This document shows, piece after piece, positions 2,017 to 62,318 of a stretch of 64,000 nt of DNA. This stretch comes from Heptranchias perlo (lineage: Eukaryota), in the NCBI RefSeq assembly GCF_035084215.1, contig NC_090364.1:4650001-4714000 (forward strand), in the 5' to 3' direction. A program made the translations under genes and the position numbers. Below the pieces are notes generated by a model. It saw only the letters and a list, made by a program, of their open reading frames with translations, searched no databases and was not told the origin of the DNA. The stretch's first letter is position 1, and each line of letters starts with the position of its first letter.

Positions 2017-4261
<2,245 letters not shown>

Positions 4262-4340
4262 CTTTACTATTTCTGTATTAGTACTTTTCACTATTACTCA
4301 AAAAGTTCTAGAACTACCTTCTTCCAGCAAAAGCTCTTGT

Positions 4341-4500
4341 ATTTATACTCCTGGGACAGCCTGCATTGAGGTAATCAATGACATCACCAATGATGATTGA
4401 CAATCCCCAATAGCCAATCAGGAATCACCCATGAATCCAGGCACCAATTAACAAAGGAGAGGCGGTGTGAGGGAGGGATTGATACCCAGAGCCAATCAGA
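4341..4500 (-). promoter_or_regulatory. Core promoter of copy 1: TATA box, CRE-like TGACATCA, several inverted CCAAT boxes; same layout in the other copies, diverged in copy 9
   Basis: TATAAAT (atttata at 4341-4347) about 80 nt upstream of ATG; tgacatca at ~4379; ccaat at ~4387, 4413, 4444, 4492. Motifs recur at matching positions in paralogues. Confidence 0.75.
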
Positions 4501-4734
4501 GGTTAGGAATACAGGCGGATTTGGATGAACAGTCTCGGAGATGTCACTGCTTCTGGGCTCTTTGAACTCCCTCAAATCTGAAAGTGACTCTTTGTTTCAA
4601 TCTCTCGGGATCATAACTTTGAATTATTTGACATTAATTTAATATTTTCACTGAAGTGGCTTTTCTTAATCTGGTCAAGTTTATTACTTTTAGTAATTGT
4701 GATAATGAGACAATATTCAAAGCAATCAAGTAGT

Positions 4735-7349: not shown

Positions 7350-9290
<1,941 letters not shown>

Positions 9291-9684
9291 CTTTACTATA
9301 CCTTATGTTTTCACTATCACCTGGACAGTTCTACATCTACCCTCTTCCCTCCCAAGCTCTTGTATTTATACTACTGGGACAGCCCGCATTGAAGCAAGGA
9401 ATGACATCACCAATGATGATTGACAATTCCCGATAACCAATCAGGAATCGTCCATGAATCCAGGCACCAATTAACAAAGGACAAGGGCGTGGTGGAGGAG
9501 AGGTTGATACCCAGAGCCAATCAGAGCTTTGGAATACAGGCTGGTTTGGGTGATTGGTCTCAGTGATATCACTGCTTTTTTTTGGACGAAAATAATTCTA
9601 AGATGGGGCACTTGTGTAACTGTCTTGAGACCCAGTGTCACCTGTATTTTTTTTTGGACATCTTGATTTCTTTATCACGATATC

Positions 9685-9903: not shown

Positions 9904-10356
9904 GCTTTTTGGGTTCTTTGACCTCCCTCATAGTGCCTCTTTGTATAAATCTCTCAGAATCACAACTTTGAATTATTTGATAATAATTTGATATTTTCAC
10001 TGAAGTGGCTTTTCATAATCTGGTCAAGTTTATTACTTGCAAGTAACAGTGATGATGAGACAATATTCAACGCAATCAAGTCATCTTGAGTGAATTTGCA
10101 AACCAAATCTTGGACAGAGAAATGGAAATTCCATCCCATGGATGGTGTGAATCGTCCCCAGTTCTAATATAGAGAATGGGTGTGTCTGAGGATTGGCAGC
10201 ATGGGGGCATCAACTGGGCAAAGCATTGTGGGATGTGTCATTTTTAGTTTTGATTCTCATGAAATGTTGTTTGGTAAAATTCAGGATATTCAGCGAGAAT
10301 GAGAGGGAGTGAAGATTACTGAATGCAATGTCACCCACACAAACATCTCCATTTGT

Positions 10357-10735
10357 GTCAGCTGTGACTCAGTGGCAGCACTCTCACCTCAGAGTCAGAA
10401 GGTTGTGGGTTCAAGTCCCACTCCAGGGACTTGAGCACAAAGTCCAGGCTGATACTTCACCACAGCACCCAGTGAGTGCTGTACAGTCGGATGAGACATT
10501 AAACCGAGGCCCCGTCTGCTCACTTAGGATGTAAAAGATCCCATGGCACTAATTTGAGTGAGAGAAGGGGAGTTCTCCCTGGTGTCTCTGCAAATATTTA
10601 TCCCTCAACCAATGTAATTAAAACAGATTATCTAATCAATATTTCATGCTGTTTGTGGGATCTTGCTGTGGCCATATTGGTTGCTGCGTTTCCAACATTA
10701 CAACAGTGAGTACATTTCAAAAGTACTTATTGGCC
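10357..10735 (+). mobile_element. DeuSINE copy, 3' truncated
   Basis: Paralogue of 5007-5447. Confidence 0.75.
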
Positions 10736-12303
10736 GTGCTTCATTGTAATCAGATTATAGGGAACGGATCAGCACAGAGTGAGCTGAACATTGGCCTGTT
10801 TTCCATTTGAGGTGTAAACAGTTAACCCCCATTAGCCCAGTTGTGACCTCCGTGTGGGGAATGTTTGCAGTTGATCCTCATCCAGGTTCAGCACATCGAG
10901 TGAGCTGAATACTTTTTGCTCGAAATATGAAGCCGTCAAAGCCATCAGCAAATCCAACCGACTCGTACAATTGTGGCTCAGCAATGAATGAAATGTGGTG
11001 AAATTGATCCCCCAAAAGTGCTTTTGAGAGAAGCAGACATTAACGTGGAACGACTGAAGACTGCAATTCCATCACACCCAGTGCAGTTCACAACTCAGTT
11101 CCTAAACTTCACTTGTAAACACTGGATAATTACAGATACAGCATCAACATTTGATCCATTCATAGGGTTGAAGGTGACAAATGGAGAACCAATAAGATTT
11201 GGAAAGGATGATTAGTATTTGGTATGAAATGCACAATAGGACCAAATACAAATTGATACATTTCAGGTTGGAGCTGATTGTATTGGGTTTATGAATTGAT
11301 GGGACAGGGATGTGGAAGGATTTTGCAGGAGAAATATCGATTTAACTTGAAATCAAAAAGCAAATTTAAACAATGAAATATATTTACTCCTTCCAAAAGG
11401 ATTTCAGTTGCACAGATATTACTCTCCCATGAGGACCTTACTCAATTGCTTCTCATGAGATCAACAGTGAGTGTTGCAGGTTCTTTACCTGGACAGTGGG
11501 TGCACACATGGGGCAAAAAAAAAGTTTTTAATCAAACCCTAACTTCTCCACCGAATCTATACTGTCCCCTAAGAAGCCAGTGGATACAAAGCAAATGTGC
11601 CAATGTTCATTGCCTCCCTCCCCCAAGTACACTGAGTTCACATTACTGGTCTGTAATTGTTTGACCACTAAGCTTACTGGAAAGCCCAGAGCAGCAATGA
11701 TGAGTTTGGTTTCATGAGCTCCCTCCAGTGTATCCCATAGCAATAACTTTTTTAAAATGGGATTGTTCAGTGGACTGATCTGGTTTAACATAAAATATCA
11801 AGAAAATGAGCTTAACACAATGTTACAGTCGCTGATATCTTGTCCTGGGGTGGGGATGTTTAAAAAGGAAGATGCCTTTTTGGAAAGAGAATATTCAGTG
11901 GTAACAGTAACTTGTATTAAAACCAGCAAAGATTGGAATGTGCTGTTAGTATTCAAGGTAAACACAGAATTGAAATTAGATAGTCAACATCCAAGTCAAT
12001 AAATTGGAATTACTACAGGAATGGCAGGGGAGGGGGGGGTTAAATTGACAATGGACTGACTCTTACACTGCCCAATGTAATTGTTAGATGTAAACTAAAT
12101 TAGGTTACTGAAAAATCAGCATCCACTCAATTTGAGACAACAAAATCCAGTTCAACAATTTATTGACAGTTCCTATTACATTTCACAAGAGCCCCGGTCT
12201 CAGTTCTTTGTACAAAGCCACATAAGTCATGACTGCTACAGGATGGGGGAGTGTCAAGACAACATGAACAGGAGCACTAATAAACTTTATCCCTGCAGTC
12301 AGT

Positions 12304-14193
<1,890 letters not shown>

Positions 14194-14759
14194 CTTTCCT
14201 GTATCCTATGTTTTCACTATCACCTGGACAGTTCGACAACTACCCTCTTCACTCCCAAGCTCTTGTATTTATACTACTGGGACAGCCAGCATTGAAGCAA
14301 GGAATGACATCACCAATGATGATTGACAATCCTCGATAACCACTCAGGAATCGTCCATGAATCCAAGCACCAATTAACAAAGGACAGGGTAAAAAAGAAA
14401 AAAAACAAAGGACAGGGGCATTGTGGAGAAGGGATTGATACCCAGAGCCAATCAGAGCTTGCGTGTTTGGTCTTGGTGATATCAATGCTTTTTGACTAAA
14501 ATAATTCTAAGATGGGGTACTTTTTTTGTGCAGGTCAGTGAGCTCTGAAGGGACGGTGGGACTGGCCTGAGGTACTGGTGCCGGCTGGTTGACGGACCAA
14601 TCATTCCCTCGGTGCTCTGTGGCCATGGATCACTCGAATCCCCACACGGGCTCCAAACTCCAGTTAAACTTTCCCATTTGGAACTAATTGTCCAAACACG
14701 AATAAGATTGAAAGTTTGTTATTCTCTAGGTTGACTTTTTATTAGTGATGTTCGTCTAG

Positions 14760-16632: not shown

Positions 16633-18995
<2,363 letters not shown>

Positions 18996-19407
18996 CTATT
19001 TCTGTTTTCACTCTTCACTATCACCTGGACAATTCTAGAACTACCCTCTTCACTCACAAGCTCTTTCATTTATACTATTGGGACAGCCGACATTTGAGCA
19101 AGGAATGACATCACCAATGATGATTGACAATCCCTGATAGCCAATCAGGAATCTTCCATAAATCCAGGCACCAATTAACAAAGGAGAAGGGGTGTGGGGG
19201 AGGGGTTGATACCCAGAGCCAATCAGAGCTTTGGAATACAGGCTGGTTTGGGTGATTGGTCTCGGTGATGTCACTGCTTTATGGGTTGTTTTTCCCTCTT
19301 TTCTTCTGTTTGACTAAAATAATTCTAAGATGGGACACTTGTGTTGCTGTCTTTAGACCCAGTGTCACCTGTATTTTTGTCACCTTCATTTCTTTATTAC
19401 GAAATCC

Positions 19408-43932: not shown

Positions 43933-45377
<1,445 letters not shown>

Positions 45378-45914
45378 CTTTAAATTAACACAAAATAGCT
45401 CTATCAAAACAAGAAACTAAGAAATAACCACCCAAAGCTCCATATTTATACTGCTGGTTAATCCGGGGCGTGGCAGCCTAGATGATTAGTGACAGTTGAC
45501 AATACCCAATCAGAAATTACATCCTCTCTCAGAACACCAATCAAGAAAAGGGAGGAGGGGAGATGACACCCAGAGCCAGTCAGAACTTTGAAGGAGGAGC
45601 ATCATTGGCTGACAATTCAATAAAGATCCAATCAATTAGAAAAAAAAATAAGGATCCAATTGCACTGACTTTCCTCAAACTGTAAAATCTGATAGTGACC
45701 ATATTATTGACCATAATTGACCTTTCTTTGATGGACCAATAAGGGAGACTCTGGGTTGCCCCAGGGTCACCAAACATAAACCATCACAAGTGGCCCTCTC
45801 AGGGCACCACTAATATTGGATGGTCCAATCAAACTGAAAAGATGCCGAAATAAGCATCAAGTGCCACCAAAAACAACAGGATACTTTCCCAATTAAATCA
45901 GGATTCTATTATTG

Positions 45915-48521: not shown

Positions 48522-50831
<2,310 letters not shown>

Positions 50832-51563
50832 CTTCACCAATTCAATAATATCACTTTCAACTATTGCTCAAAAAGTTCTAAAACTATCTTCTTTCCTCCC
50901 AAGCTCTTGTATTTATACTACTGGGACAGTCTGCAGTTTGGTAAGCAATGACATCACCAATGATGATTGACAATCCCCAATAGTCAATCAGGAATCATCT
51001 ATTTAACCAATTAACAAAGGAGAGGCAGTGTGGGGCGGGATTGATACCCAGAGCCAATCAGAGGTTTGGAATACAGGCCAATTTGGATAATCAGTCTCCG
51101 TGATGCTTTTGGGGTCATTGACGTCCCTCAAATCTGAAAGTTTCTCTTTGTTTCAATCTCTCGGAATGACAACTTTGAATTATTTGATAATAATTTGCTA
51201 TTTTCACTGAAGTGGCTTTTCATAATCTGGTCAAGTTTATTACTTGTTCGTAATTGTGACACTGAGACAATATTCAGAGGAATCAAGTAGTCTTGAGTGA
51301 ATTTGCAAACCAACCATTGGACAGAGAAATGGAAATTCCATCCCATGGATGGTGTGAATCGTCCCCAGTTCTAATATAGAGAATGGGTGTGTCTGAGGAT
51401 TGGCAGCATGGGGGCATCAACTGGGCAAAGCATTGTGGGATGTGTCATTTTTCGTTTTGATTCTCATGAAATGTTGTTTGGTAAAATTCAGGATATTCAG
51501 CGAGAATGAGAGGGAGTGAAGATTACTGAATGCAATGTCACCCACACAAACATCTCCATTTGT

Positions 51564-54127: not shown

Positions 54128-56011
<1,884 letters not shown>

Positions 56012-56758
56012 CTTCACTATTTTTTTAATATATGAATACCTTTACACTATTACCCAGAAAACTAAAGAACGATCCACTTTCTGCACAAGCTCTTGTATTT
56101 ATATTACTGGGACAGCCTGCATTTTGACAACAAATGACATCACCAATGATGATTGACAATCCCCGATAGCCACTCAGGAATCGTCCATGAATCCAGGCAC
56201 CAATTAACAAAGGACGGGTTGTGGGGGAGGGGTTGATACCCAGAGCCAATCAGAGGTTTGGAATACAGTCCAGTTTGGATAATCAGTCTCGGTGATGTCA
56301 CTGCTTTTGGGGTCTTTGACCTCCTTCAAATCTGAAAGTGTCTCTTTGTTTAAATCTCTCGGAATCATAGCTTTGAATTATTTGATAATTTAATATTTTC
56401 ACTGAAGTGGCTTTTCATAATCTGGTCAAGTTTATTACTTGTCAGTAACTGTGAGGCTGAGACAATATTCAAAGCAATCAAGTCGTCTTGAGTGAATTTG
56501 CAAACCAACCATTGGACAGAGAAATGGAAATTCCATCCCATGGATGGTGTGAATCGTCCCCAGTTCTAATATAGAGAATGGGTGTGTCTGAGGATTGGCA
56601 GCATGGGGGCATCAACTGGGCAAAGCATTGTGGGATGTGTTATTTTTGGTTTTGATTCTCATGAAATGTTGTTTGGTAAAATTCAGGATATTCAGCGAGA
56701 ATGAGAGGGAGTGAAGATTACTGAATGCAATGTCACCCACACAAACATCCCCATTTGT

Positions 56759-58825: not shown

Positions 58826-61571
<2,746 letters not shown>

Positions 61572-62318
61572 CTTCACTATGTCTCTATCAAAATTTTTCA
61601 CTATTACCCAAAAAAGCTCCACAACTAACTTCTTCCCTCACAAGCTCTTTTATTTATACCACTGGGACAGCCTGCATTTAAACAGGGTATGACATCATCA
61701 ATGATGATTGACAATCCCTAATAGCCAATCAGGAATCTTCCATGAATCCAGGCACCAATTAACAAAGGAGTGGGGGTGTGGGGGAGGGATTGATAACCAG
61801 AGCCAATCAGAGGTTTGGAACACAGGCCAGTTTGGGTGATGAGTCTCAGTGATGTCACTGCTTTCGGGCTCTTTGACCTCCCTCCAATCTGAAAGTTTCT
61901 CTTTGTTTCAATCTCTTGGAATCATAACTTTGAATTATTTGATAATAATTTGATATTTTCACTGAAGTGGCTTTTCATAATCTGGTCAAGTTTATTACTT
62001 GTTAGTGATTGTGATGTTGAGACAATATTCAAAGCAATCAAGTTGTCTTGAGTGAATTTGCAAACCAACCATTGGACAGAGAAATGGAAATTCCATCCCA
62101 TGGATGGTGTGAATCGTCCCCAGTTCTAATATAGAGAATGGGTGTGTCTGAGGATTGGCAGCATGGGGGCATCAACTGGGCAAAGCATTGTGGGATGCGT
62201 CATTTTTAGTTTTGATTCTCATGAAATGTTGTTTGGTAAAATTCAGGATATTCAGCGAGAATGAGAGGGAGTGAAGATTACTGAATGCAATGTCACCCAC
62301 ACAAACATCTCCATTTGT

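Follow-up and report, generated by a model that had tools for sequence, protein, structure and literature searches.

The window, a 64-kb stretch of Heptranchias perlo DNA, carries 12 tandem ferritin genes, all on the minus strand (g1-g12; Table 1), and a BLASTN search with g1 returned each of its four exons 12 times. Neighbouring copies lie 4.8-6.3 kb apart from ATG to ATG, and all 12 have four exons, three GT-AG introns and open frames of 173-176 aa. Purifying selection acts on the 12 open frames, with a dN/dS of 0.16 across 45 pairs drawn from ten of the genes (g9 and g10 were omitted for length). Five window proteins match RefSeq models of this species: g1 (176 aa, identical to stored protein P0141), g5, g6, g7, which equals P0005 except for one extra N-terminal methionine in P0005, and g10, identical to P0011. 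Contigs from four runs in two studies bridged introns 1-3 of g2 at the predicted GT-AG ends, in both studies: intron 1 in runs X1, X2 and X6, intron 2 in all four runs, and intron 3 in X1, X2, X3 and, with a one-base offset, X6. These contigs were matched at 80% likeness and therefore include paralogues and relatives, and their status as RNA is a guess. The window ferritins are real, spliced genes. Their 3'UTRs are short, with the poly(A) signal 112-161 nt past the stop codon in g1-g12; the block right before AATAAA is conserved and often contains AUAGU, and g4 and g5 have an additional AATAAA 12 nt past the stop.

The most divergent copy is g9, with a three-codon deletion in exon 1, an intron 1 of about 143 nt and a different promoter (upstream region 45378-45670) that lacks TGTCAATCA and precedes a U-rich predicted leader, also IRE-less. 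We considered the deletion as the mark of an old shark subfamily and rejected this idea, as 0 of 176 stored proteins carry it. Positions 1-1900 hold no additional ferritin exon; a 68-nt GC-rich tandem repeat (4.7 copies) lies downstream of g1 at 348-665. Between g7 and g8, a near-perfect inverted repeat of about 83 nt (36306-36388), possibly a small transposon relic, gave weak matches to Rfam miRNA families, far under their gathering scores. The interspersed repeats at 10259-10741 and 8810-8970, presumably SINE-like, are covered in each of the four runs by numerous divergent contigs. A conserved far-upstream block recurs as an inverted copy in intron 1 of g4 (18302-18422).

Table 1. Positions of the ferritin genes and of the promoter, leader and related features in the window
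Feature	Position	Strand	Details
g1 ferritin	2017..4261	minus	exons 4261-4160, 3430-3284, 2609-2484, 2172-2017
g1 poly(A) signal AATAAA	1904-1899	minus	
g1 predicted leader	4262..4315	minus	54 nt; A-rich, C-poor, without IRE or conserved structure
g1 AUAGUGAAAA motif	4285..4294	minus	conserved AUAGU core at about +22; not an IRE
g1 predicted initiator T-A(+1)GTT	4311..4316	minus	predicted TSS 4315
g1 TATA box TATAAAT	4341..4347	minus	
g1 proximal promoter block	4348..4577	minus	five ATTGG (reverse CCAAT) at -149, -101, -71, -64 and -44 from TATA
g1 promoter motifs	4348..4577	minus	TGTCAATCA at -55, TGATGTCA at -39
g2 ferritin	7350..9370	minus	TATA 9370, predicted leader 9338-9291, ATG 9290
g3 ferritin	12304..14273	minus	TATA 14273, ATG 14193, predicted leader 48 nt
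g4 ferritin	16633..19074	minus	TATA 19074, ATG 18992, predicted leader 50 nt
g5 ferritin	22079..24045	minus	TATA 24045, ATG 23965, predicted leader 48 nt; protein = P0133
g6 ferritin (E62N)	26539..28948	minus	TATA 28948, ATG 28862, predicted leader 54 nt; protein = P0010
g7 ferritin	31639..34107	minus	TATA 34107, ATG 34025, predicted leader 50 nt
g8 ferritin	37854..40453	minus	TATA 40453, ATG 40363, predicted leader 58 nt
g9 ferritin (173 aa)	43933..45450	minus	TATA 45450, ATG 45377, predicted leader 41 nt
g10 ferritin (175 aa, E62N)	48522..50917	minus	TATA 50917, ATG 50831, predicted leader 54 nt
g11 ferritin	54128..56103	minus	TATA 56103, ATG 56011, predicted leader 60 nt
g12 ferritin	58826..61658	minus	TATA 61658, ATG 61571, predicted leader 55 nt
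IRE 5'-arm-like stretch, loop missing	9371-9402 (g2), 14274-14305 (g3), 24046-24077 (g5)	minus	directly 5' of TATA

Relation to other ferritins

Stored proteins identical to window proteins contain the PF00210 ferritin domain, and P0004 matched ferritin H/M chains at E~1e-85. Alignment with those chains supplied the numbering of the ferroxidase ligands, which we take to be E27, Y34, E61, E62, H65, E107 and Q141. All seven are kept in the sequences of nine of the 12 window proteins. The other three have a changed Glu62, accompanied in one case by a second substitution (E62K with H65D in g1, E62N in g6 and in g10). In exon 2 of these genes (3430-3284 in g1, 28023-27877 in g6, 49989-49843 in g10) the change to K or N adjoins R63W, and they form a sub-clade with P0010.

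To place the family we built a tree from the 12 window proteins together with 31 stored ones picked from 120; it was rooted at its midpoint only and contained no teleost M, frog M or outgroup. The window genes fall inside an elasmobranch clade (support 98/99), and the FTH1 clade (five rows; support 97/92) excludes all of them; their identity to skate fth1a is 71-75%. By this placement the window genes are not FTH1 (H-chain) orthologues. As judged from the unrooted tree, which contains no teleost or frog M chain, they lie on the non-FTH1 side with coelacanth, K62 shark and reptile L chains. A second shark clade has K62, as reptile L chains do, and the E62-substituted sub-clade is separate from the shark K62 clade and from tetrapod L chains. 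The sequences suggest that L-like subunits may have emerged repeatedly within the array.

The window genes are members of a shark-wide multicopy ferritin family. The best 54 matches to exon 4 were all shark proteins, with many per species, and shark ferritin clusters at 90% had 180, 138 and 127 members. The gene fth1a forms its own 90% cluster and lies on contigs other than the array's in the same species; in white shark, fth1a and the array are on separate contigs (171.6 Mb vs 33.1 Mb). Tandem multicopy clusters of the same kind are known from other elasmobranchs, both in a Greenland shark preprint and as RefSeq 'ferritin heavy chain B-like / oocyte isoform-like' entries. The preprint reports 155 FTL and 179 FTH1 copies in clusters syntenic with white shark, and one sentence describes the largest cluster as ovary-specific in expression (10.1101/2024.09.09.611499). 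It labels its copies FTH1/FTL, whereas the window genes lie outside the FTH1 clade. The ovary report concerns another shark species, and we liken that cluster to the window by family, not by established orthology. Ferritin transcripts are described as abundant in vertebrate ovaries. Several 176-aa ferritin paralogues occur in coelacanth too (P0087, P0173-P0175), three of them on one 172-Mb contig, and their IRE status bears on the question of whether non-shark vertebrates also underwent amplification or IRE loss.

With the vertebrate M/L lineage (frog M, salmon M1-M3, coelacanth 176-aa ferritins) the window genes share the four-exon, three-intron structure, a length of 176 aa with alignment to the frog M chain from residue 1 and, in nine of the 12 copies, intact ferroxidase ligands. 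Salmon H1, H2 and M1-M3, however, are all reported to have predicted IREs, and the IRE has been used to separate real salmon ferritin genes from pseudogenes. Among ferritins described as independent of IRE/IRP regulation, mammalian FTMT is intronless and mitochondrial, whereas the window genes have three introns, no targeting extension and a mostly intact ferroxidase site. FTHL17, a germ-cell ferritin reported in six mouse copies, has the E62K substitution also found in g1. Schistosoma ferritin mRNAs reportedly lack IREs, with one isoform serving as a yolk protein, and atypical sponge ferritins lack them too. The hadal snailfish fthl27 is likewise a tandemly amplified fish ferritin gene, with 14 mostly tandem, recent and broadly expressed copies, whereas the expansion in sharks is old and much more extensive; the available text of that paper contains 0 occurrences of IRE (PMC10746142).

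Search for iron-responsive elements

The initial annotation of the segment running from the g1 TATAAAT down to the base preceding its ATG at 4261 (4262-4347, minus strand) had claimed that none of the 12 predicted 5'UTRs contains a canonical IRE. We judged the leaders by the IRE features of Volz 2021 and by Rfam RF00037, and an Rfam search, a structural scan and a core-motif search confirmed the claim. The CAGUGN loop said to be missing between TATA and ATG is indeed missing, with CAG[A/U]G absent in all 12 copies. The leaders contain 16 NAGUGN loops; none has a bulged C at position 8, and the upper helix has 0-3 of five pairs in all of them. Those with UAGUG form just one to three pairs, in line with the annotated absence of a conserved 5-bp upper stem. 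The C14-G18 cross-loop pair with A15-G16-U17 is also absent, the leaders having a UAGUG loop or none. RNAalifold returned 0 consensus pairs over the 12 leaders. The AUAGUGAAAA loop of g1 has two of five upper-stem pairs and a G at position 8; this motif had been ascribed to most copies, but it is exact in four (g1, g2, g3 and g12), and AUAGUG is present in nine. Since the UAGUG loops lack C14-G18, C8 and the 5-bp helix, the leaders fail as IREs, and sequence gives good support to the proposed uncoupling from IRP repression. The absence of an IRE from about 50 nt is expected by chance (0.08 canonical IREs are expected per shuffled 64-kb strand), and carries information only because the IREs of vertebrate ferritins, as a table of their sequences attests, are nearly invariant and cap-proximal. 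Among other features of the leaders, g4 and g7 have an in-frame ATG immediately 5' of the main one (18993-18995 and 34026-34028), and g2 and g5 have short upstream ATGs between TATA and the main ATG.

Our searches also took in every stretch of intergenic DNA upstream of g1-g11, and for g12 the 2.4 kb upstream. Rfam gave 16 matches at E<=10 in 64 kb, none of them an IRE. Scans of 151 nt (g3) and 166 nt (g1) of promoter and leader, which are more permissive and listed four and three other matches down to 7-9 bits, returned no IRE family. The structural scan found 0 canonical IREs on the whole 64-kb coding strand, also at one stem mismatch; when synthetic hairpins were planted, 200 of 200 were recovered for each type, which tests the code rather than how well real IREs are picked up. 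For the 13-nt core of vertebrate ferritin IREs there were 0 matches at up to two mismatches vs 3.0 expected by chance, and for the IRE 3' core 10 at up to three mismatches vs 14 expected. CNNNNNCAGWGH occurred 70 times against an expected 54.5, without clear enrichment (six of 100 shuffles reached 70), and the closest CAGWGH above any ATG was 277-378 nt distant. A metagenome search for positive-control IRE loci yielded 72 candidate stretches and three weak loci (best E 2e-6), none of them suitable as a control.

Two sets of upstream candidates were rejected. The best, 288 nt above the g1 ATG, has C8 and four of five pairs; it has no lower stem, and the other copies do not retain it (two of five pairs in g6, g8, g11 and g12). 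Five relaxed-loop hairpins with one mismatch lie 265-1183 nt from ATGs, none of them within a leader. A farther upstream exon supplying an IRE was found nowhere on the coding strand of the window, and such an exon is thus excluded inside it. We regard it as highly probable that the array ferritins are IRE-less.

Promoters and predicted transcription starts

Above each of the 12 genes we found a TATA box with three to six CCAAT boxes. Coding-strand TATAWAW with at least three CCAAT/ATTGG within 200 nt upstream occurred at exactly 12 sites, one per ATG; one further coding-strand TATAWAW site has two such boxes. TGTCAATCA is at -55 in 11 copies and TGATGTCA at -39 in nine, and we take the factors for the promoter motifs to be NF-Y, Pbx/Meis-like and CRE-like. 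TATAAAT is present above the ATG in all 12 copies, as annotated. Its closeness to the ATG held, but the distance of 65-80 nt did not, the end of TATAAA being 67-86 nt from the ATG; similarly, the leaders are short, with a predicted range of 41-60 nt rather than 40-55 nt. In 11 copies an initiator-like pyrimidine-A (TAGTT-like) follows the TATA at a fixed spacing, with the A exactly 32 nt on, counted from the first T of the box; g11 has C there. The TSS was predicted from this TATA-initiator spacing, as contigs cannot show starts or levels. A few low-depth contigs cross the g2 TATA unspliced (X3 record 21, 9255-9540), which speaks against a single sharp start, and could represent DNA or upstream-initiated RNA; the DNA under them is also without an IRE. 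Summed contig depth drops above the g2 ATG, and X1 and X3 differ; we counted neither as evidence.

Mean pairwise identity was 0.79 in the promoter, 0.69 in the first 120 nt of intron 1, 0.63 in the leader and 0.54 in far-upstream DNA. The higher identity of the promoter than of the leader fits selection on transcriptional elements over leader RNA, although the 12 copies are related rather than independent, and their promoters could owe part of this identity to gene conversion. The annotated transcriptional control gains only indirect support from this, and post-transcriptional control through the 3'UTR or the RUAGU motifs may act as well. TATA and CCAAT boxes are widespread and not specific to oocytes. 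CCAAT clusters have reportedly been studied in zebrafish zona pellucida promoters. Oocyte promoters of mouse and zebrafish are described as preferring TATA-like boxes at -31 to -24 with a sharp TSS.

Directly 5' of TATA, g2, g3 and g5 carry a stretch that resembles the 5' arm of an IRE. It gave three exact 10-mer matches vs 0.57 expected, in copies that are not independent, and falls outside the predicted mRNA. Its likeness to vertebrate ferritin IREs is gapped, was drawn by eye and was chosen post hoc. The g3 copy had no Rfam IRE match, and the stretch formed no hairpin beyond chance (z -1.0 to +0.9). One could imagine that the elasmobranch ovary ferritins (>100 genes, ancient) are a vertebrate 'yolk ferritin' system, in which a new TATA/initiator arose 3' of the ancestral IRE and, in a single step, moved the cap site past it and allowed escape from IRPs. 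A decaying relic in the roughly 30 nt directly 5' of the present TATA, clearest in g2, g3 and g5, would be left behind, and amplification would have followed, with repeated splitting into ferroxidase-active and Glu62-substituted (L-like) subunits co-assembling in oocytes. We consider this scenario unlikely because it relies on a post hoc 10-mer in three related copies, without support from models or folding.

Proposed control of the array

Our preferred reading, which we consider probable, is that the array belongs to a family of oocyte ferritins that has escaped repression by IRPs and is driven by its TATA/CCAAT promoter together with gene dosage. A tandem elasmobranch expansion outside the FTH1 clade would have lost the IRE, and each unit of about 5 kb would be transcribed from its own CCAAT-cluster, TATA and initiator promoter, with a start about 32 nt below TATA predicted from motif spacing. 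The mRNA leader of 41-60 nt would be unstructured and, judging by the failed IRE features, not bound by IRP1 or IRP2, so that translation would not be throttled at low iron. Output would be set by promoter activity and copy number, as their product, and not by cytosolic iron. Expression of many copies in the ovary, as in the Greenland shark report, could then build up a bulk stock of ferritin shells in advance of the labile iron pool and without dependence on it. Their purpose would be maternal iron provisioning and redox buffering, with the oocyte as the presumed cell type, and the separate fth1a would keep its ordinary somatic role and presumably its IRE.

An IRE-less array could serve another purpose, such as stress or immune inducibility, red cells or the general antioxidant dosage put forward for the snailfish fthl27, or could be largely a by-product of birth-and-death duplication. 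The snailfish fthl27, reported to be expressed in most tissues and tied to ROS tolerance (PMC10746142), and the loss of ferroxidase ligand E62 from three of the 12 copies would fit such alternatives. We think it unlikely, given the ovary-specific expression reported for the largest shark cluster (10.1101/2024.09.09.611499) and the purifying selection on the 12 open frames. Translation might also remain the main control of IRE-less mRNAs, through (G/A)U1-3AGU motifs in the leader and beside the poly(A) signal. This motif, which we take to be the Musashi-type consensus, occurs 17 times in the 12 leaders vs 6.0 (maximum 12) in dinucleotide shuffles and at least once in each of the 12 3' regions (260 nt beyond the stop), and mouse MSI1 is described as binding and stabilising Fthl17c mRNA. 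However, P per leader ranges from 0.03 to 1.0 and falls under 0.05 in just one of 12. Shared ancestry inflates the pooled count, an initiator is the better reading of the first TAGTT, and UUUUAU CPEs lie 5' of the poly(A) signal in only two copies (g5 and g10). We therefore hold control through these motifs to be quite improbable.

Least probable, to a degree that leaves it little weight, is that mature mRNAs carry an IRE from a shared 5' exon outside the window, or that the UAGUGA loop binds IRP weakly. AG precedes the ATG at the end of most leaders, and acceptor-like pyrimidine tracts reach 0.65 and 0.75 in g9, 0.65 in g11 and 0.60 in g8, compared with a mean of 0.74 and a minimum of 0.60 in real acceptors. 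Nine of the 12 leaders, however, have no AG with a tract of at least 0.60, a complete promoter stands at every gene, and none of the 15 joints listed, out of 166, connects a leader to upstream DNA. As for weak binding, the salmon M-chain loop is reported as CAGUGA, one change from UAGUGA, but the UAGUG loops lack C8 and the stem, and even a full IRE carrying U14-G18 does not regulate in vivo.

Ferritin genes and their expansion in sharks are already known, and IRE-less ferritins exist elsewhere. We found no report of IRE loss in shark ferritins among titles, abstract openings and the text of the Greenland shark preprint, with subscription journals and preprint supplements outside this scope; the main text of the preprint contains none of the terms 'iron', 'IRE', 'UTR' and 'responsive' (10.1101/2024.09.09.611499). 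An IRE counts as a hallmark of vertebrate ferritin genes with introns, and here 12 intact, spliced and selected copies drop it wholesale. Gene dosage with loss of the iron brake would suit the pre-loading of large yolky eggs and may offer a mechanism for hundreds of ovary-expressed copies. If this is true, the reading of the shark ferritin expansion would move from longevity and stress to reproduction.
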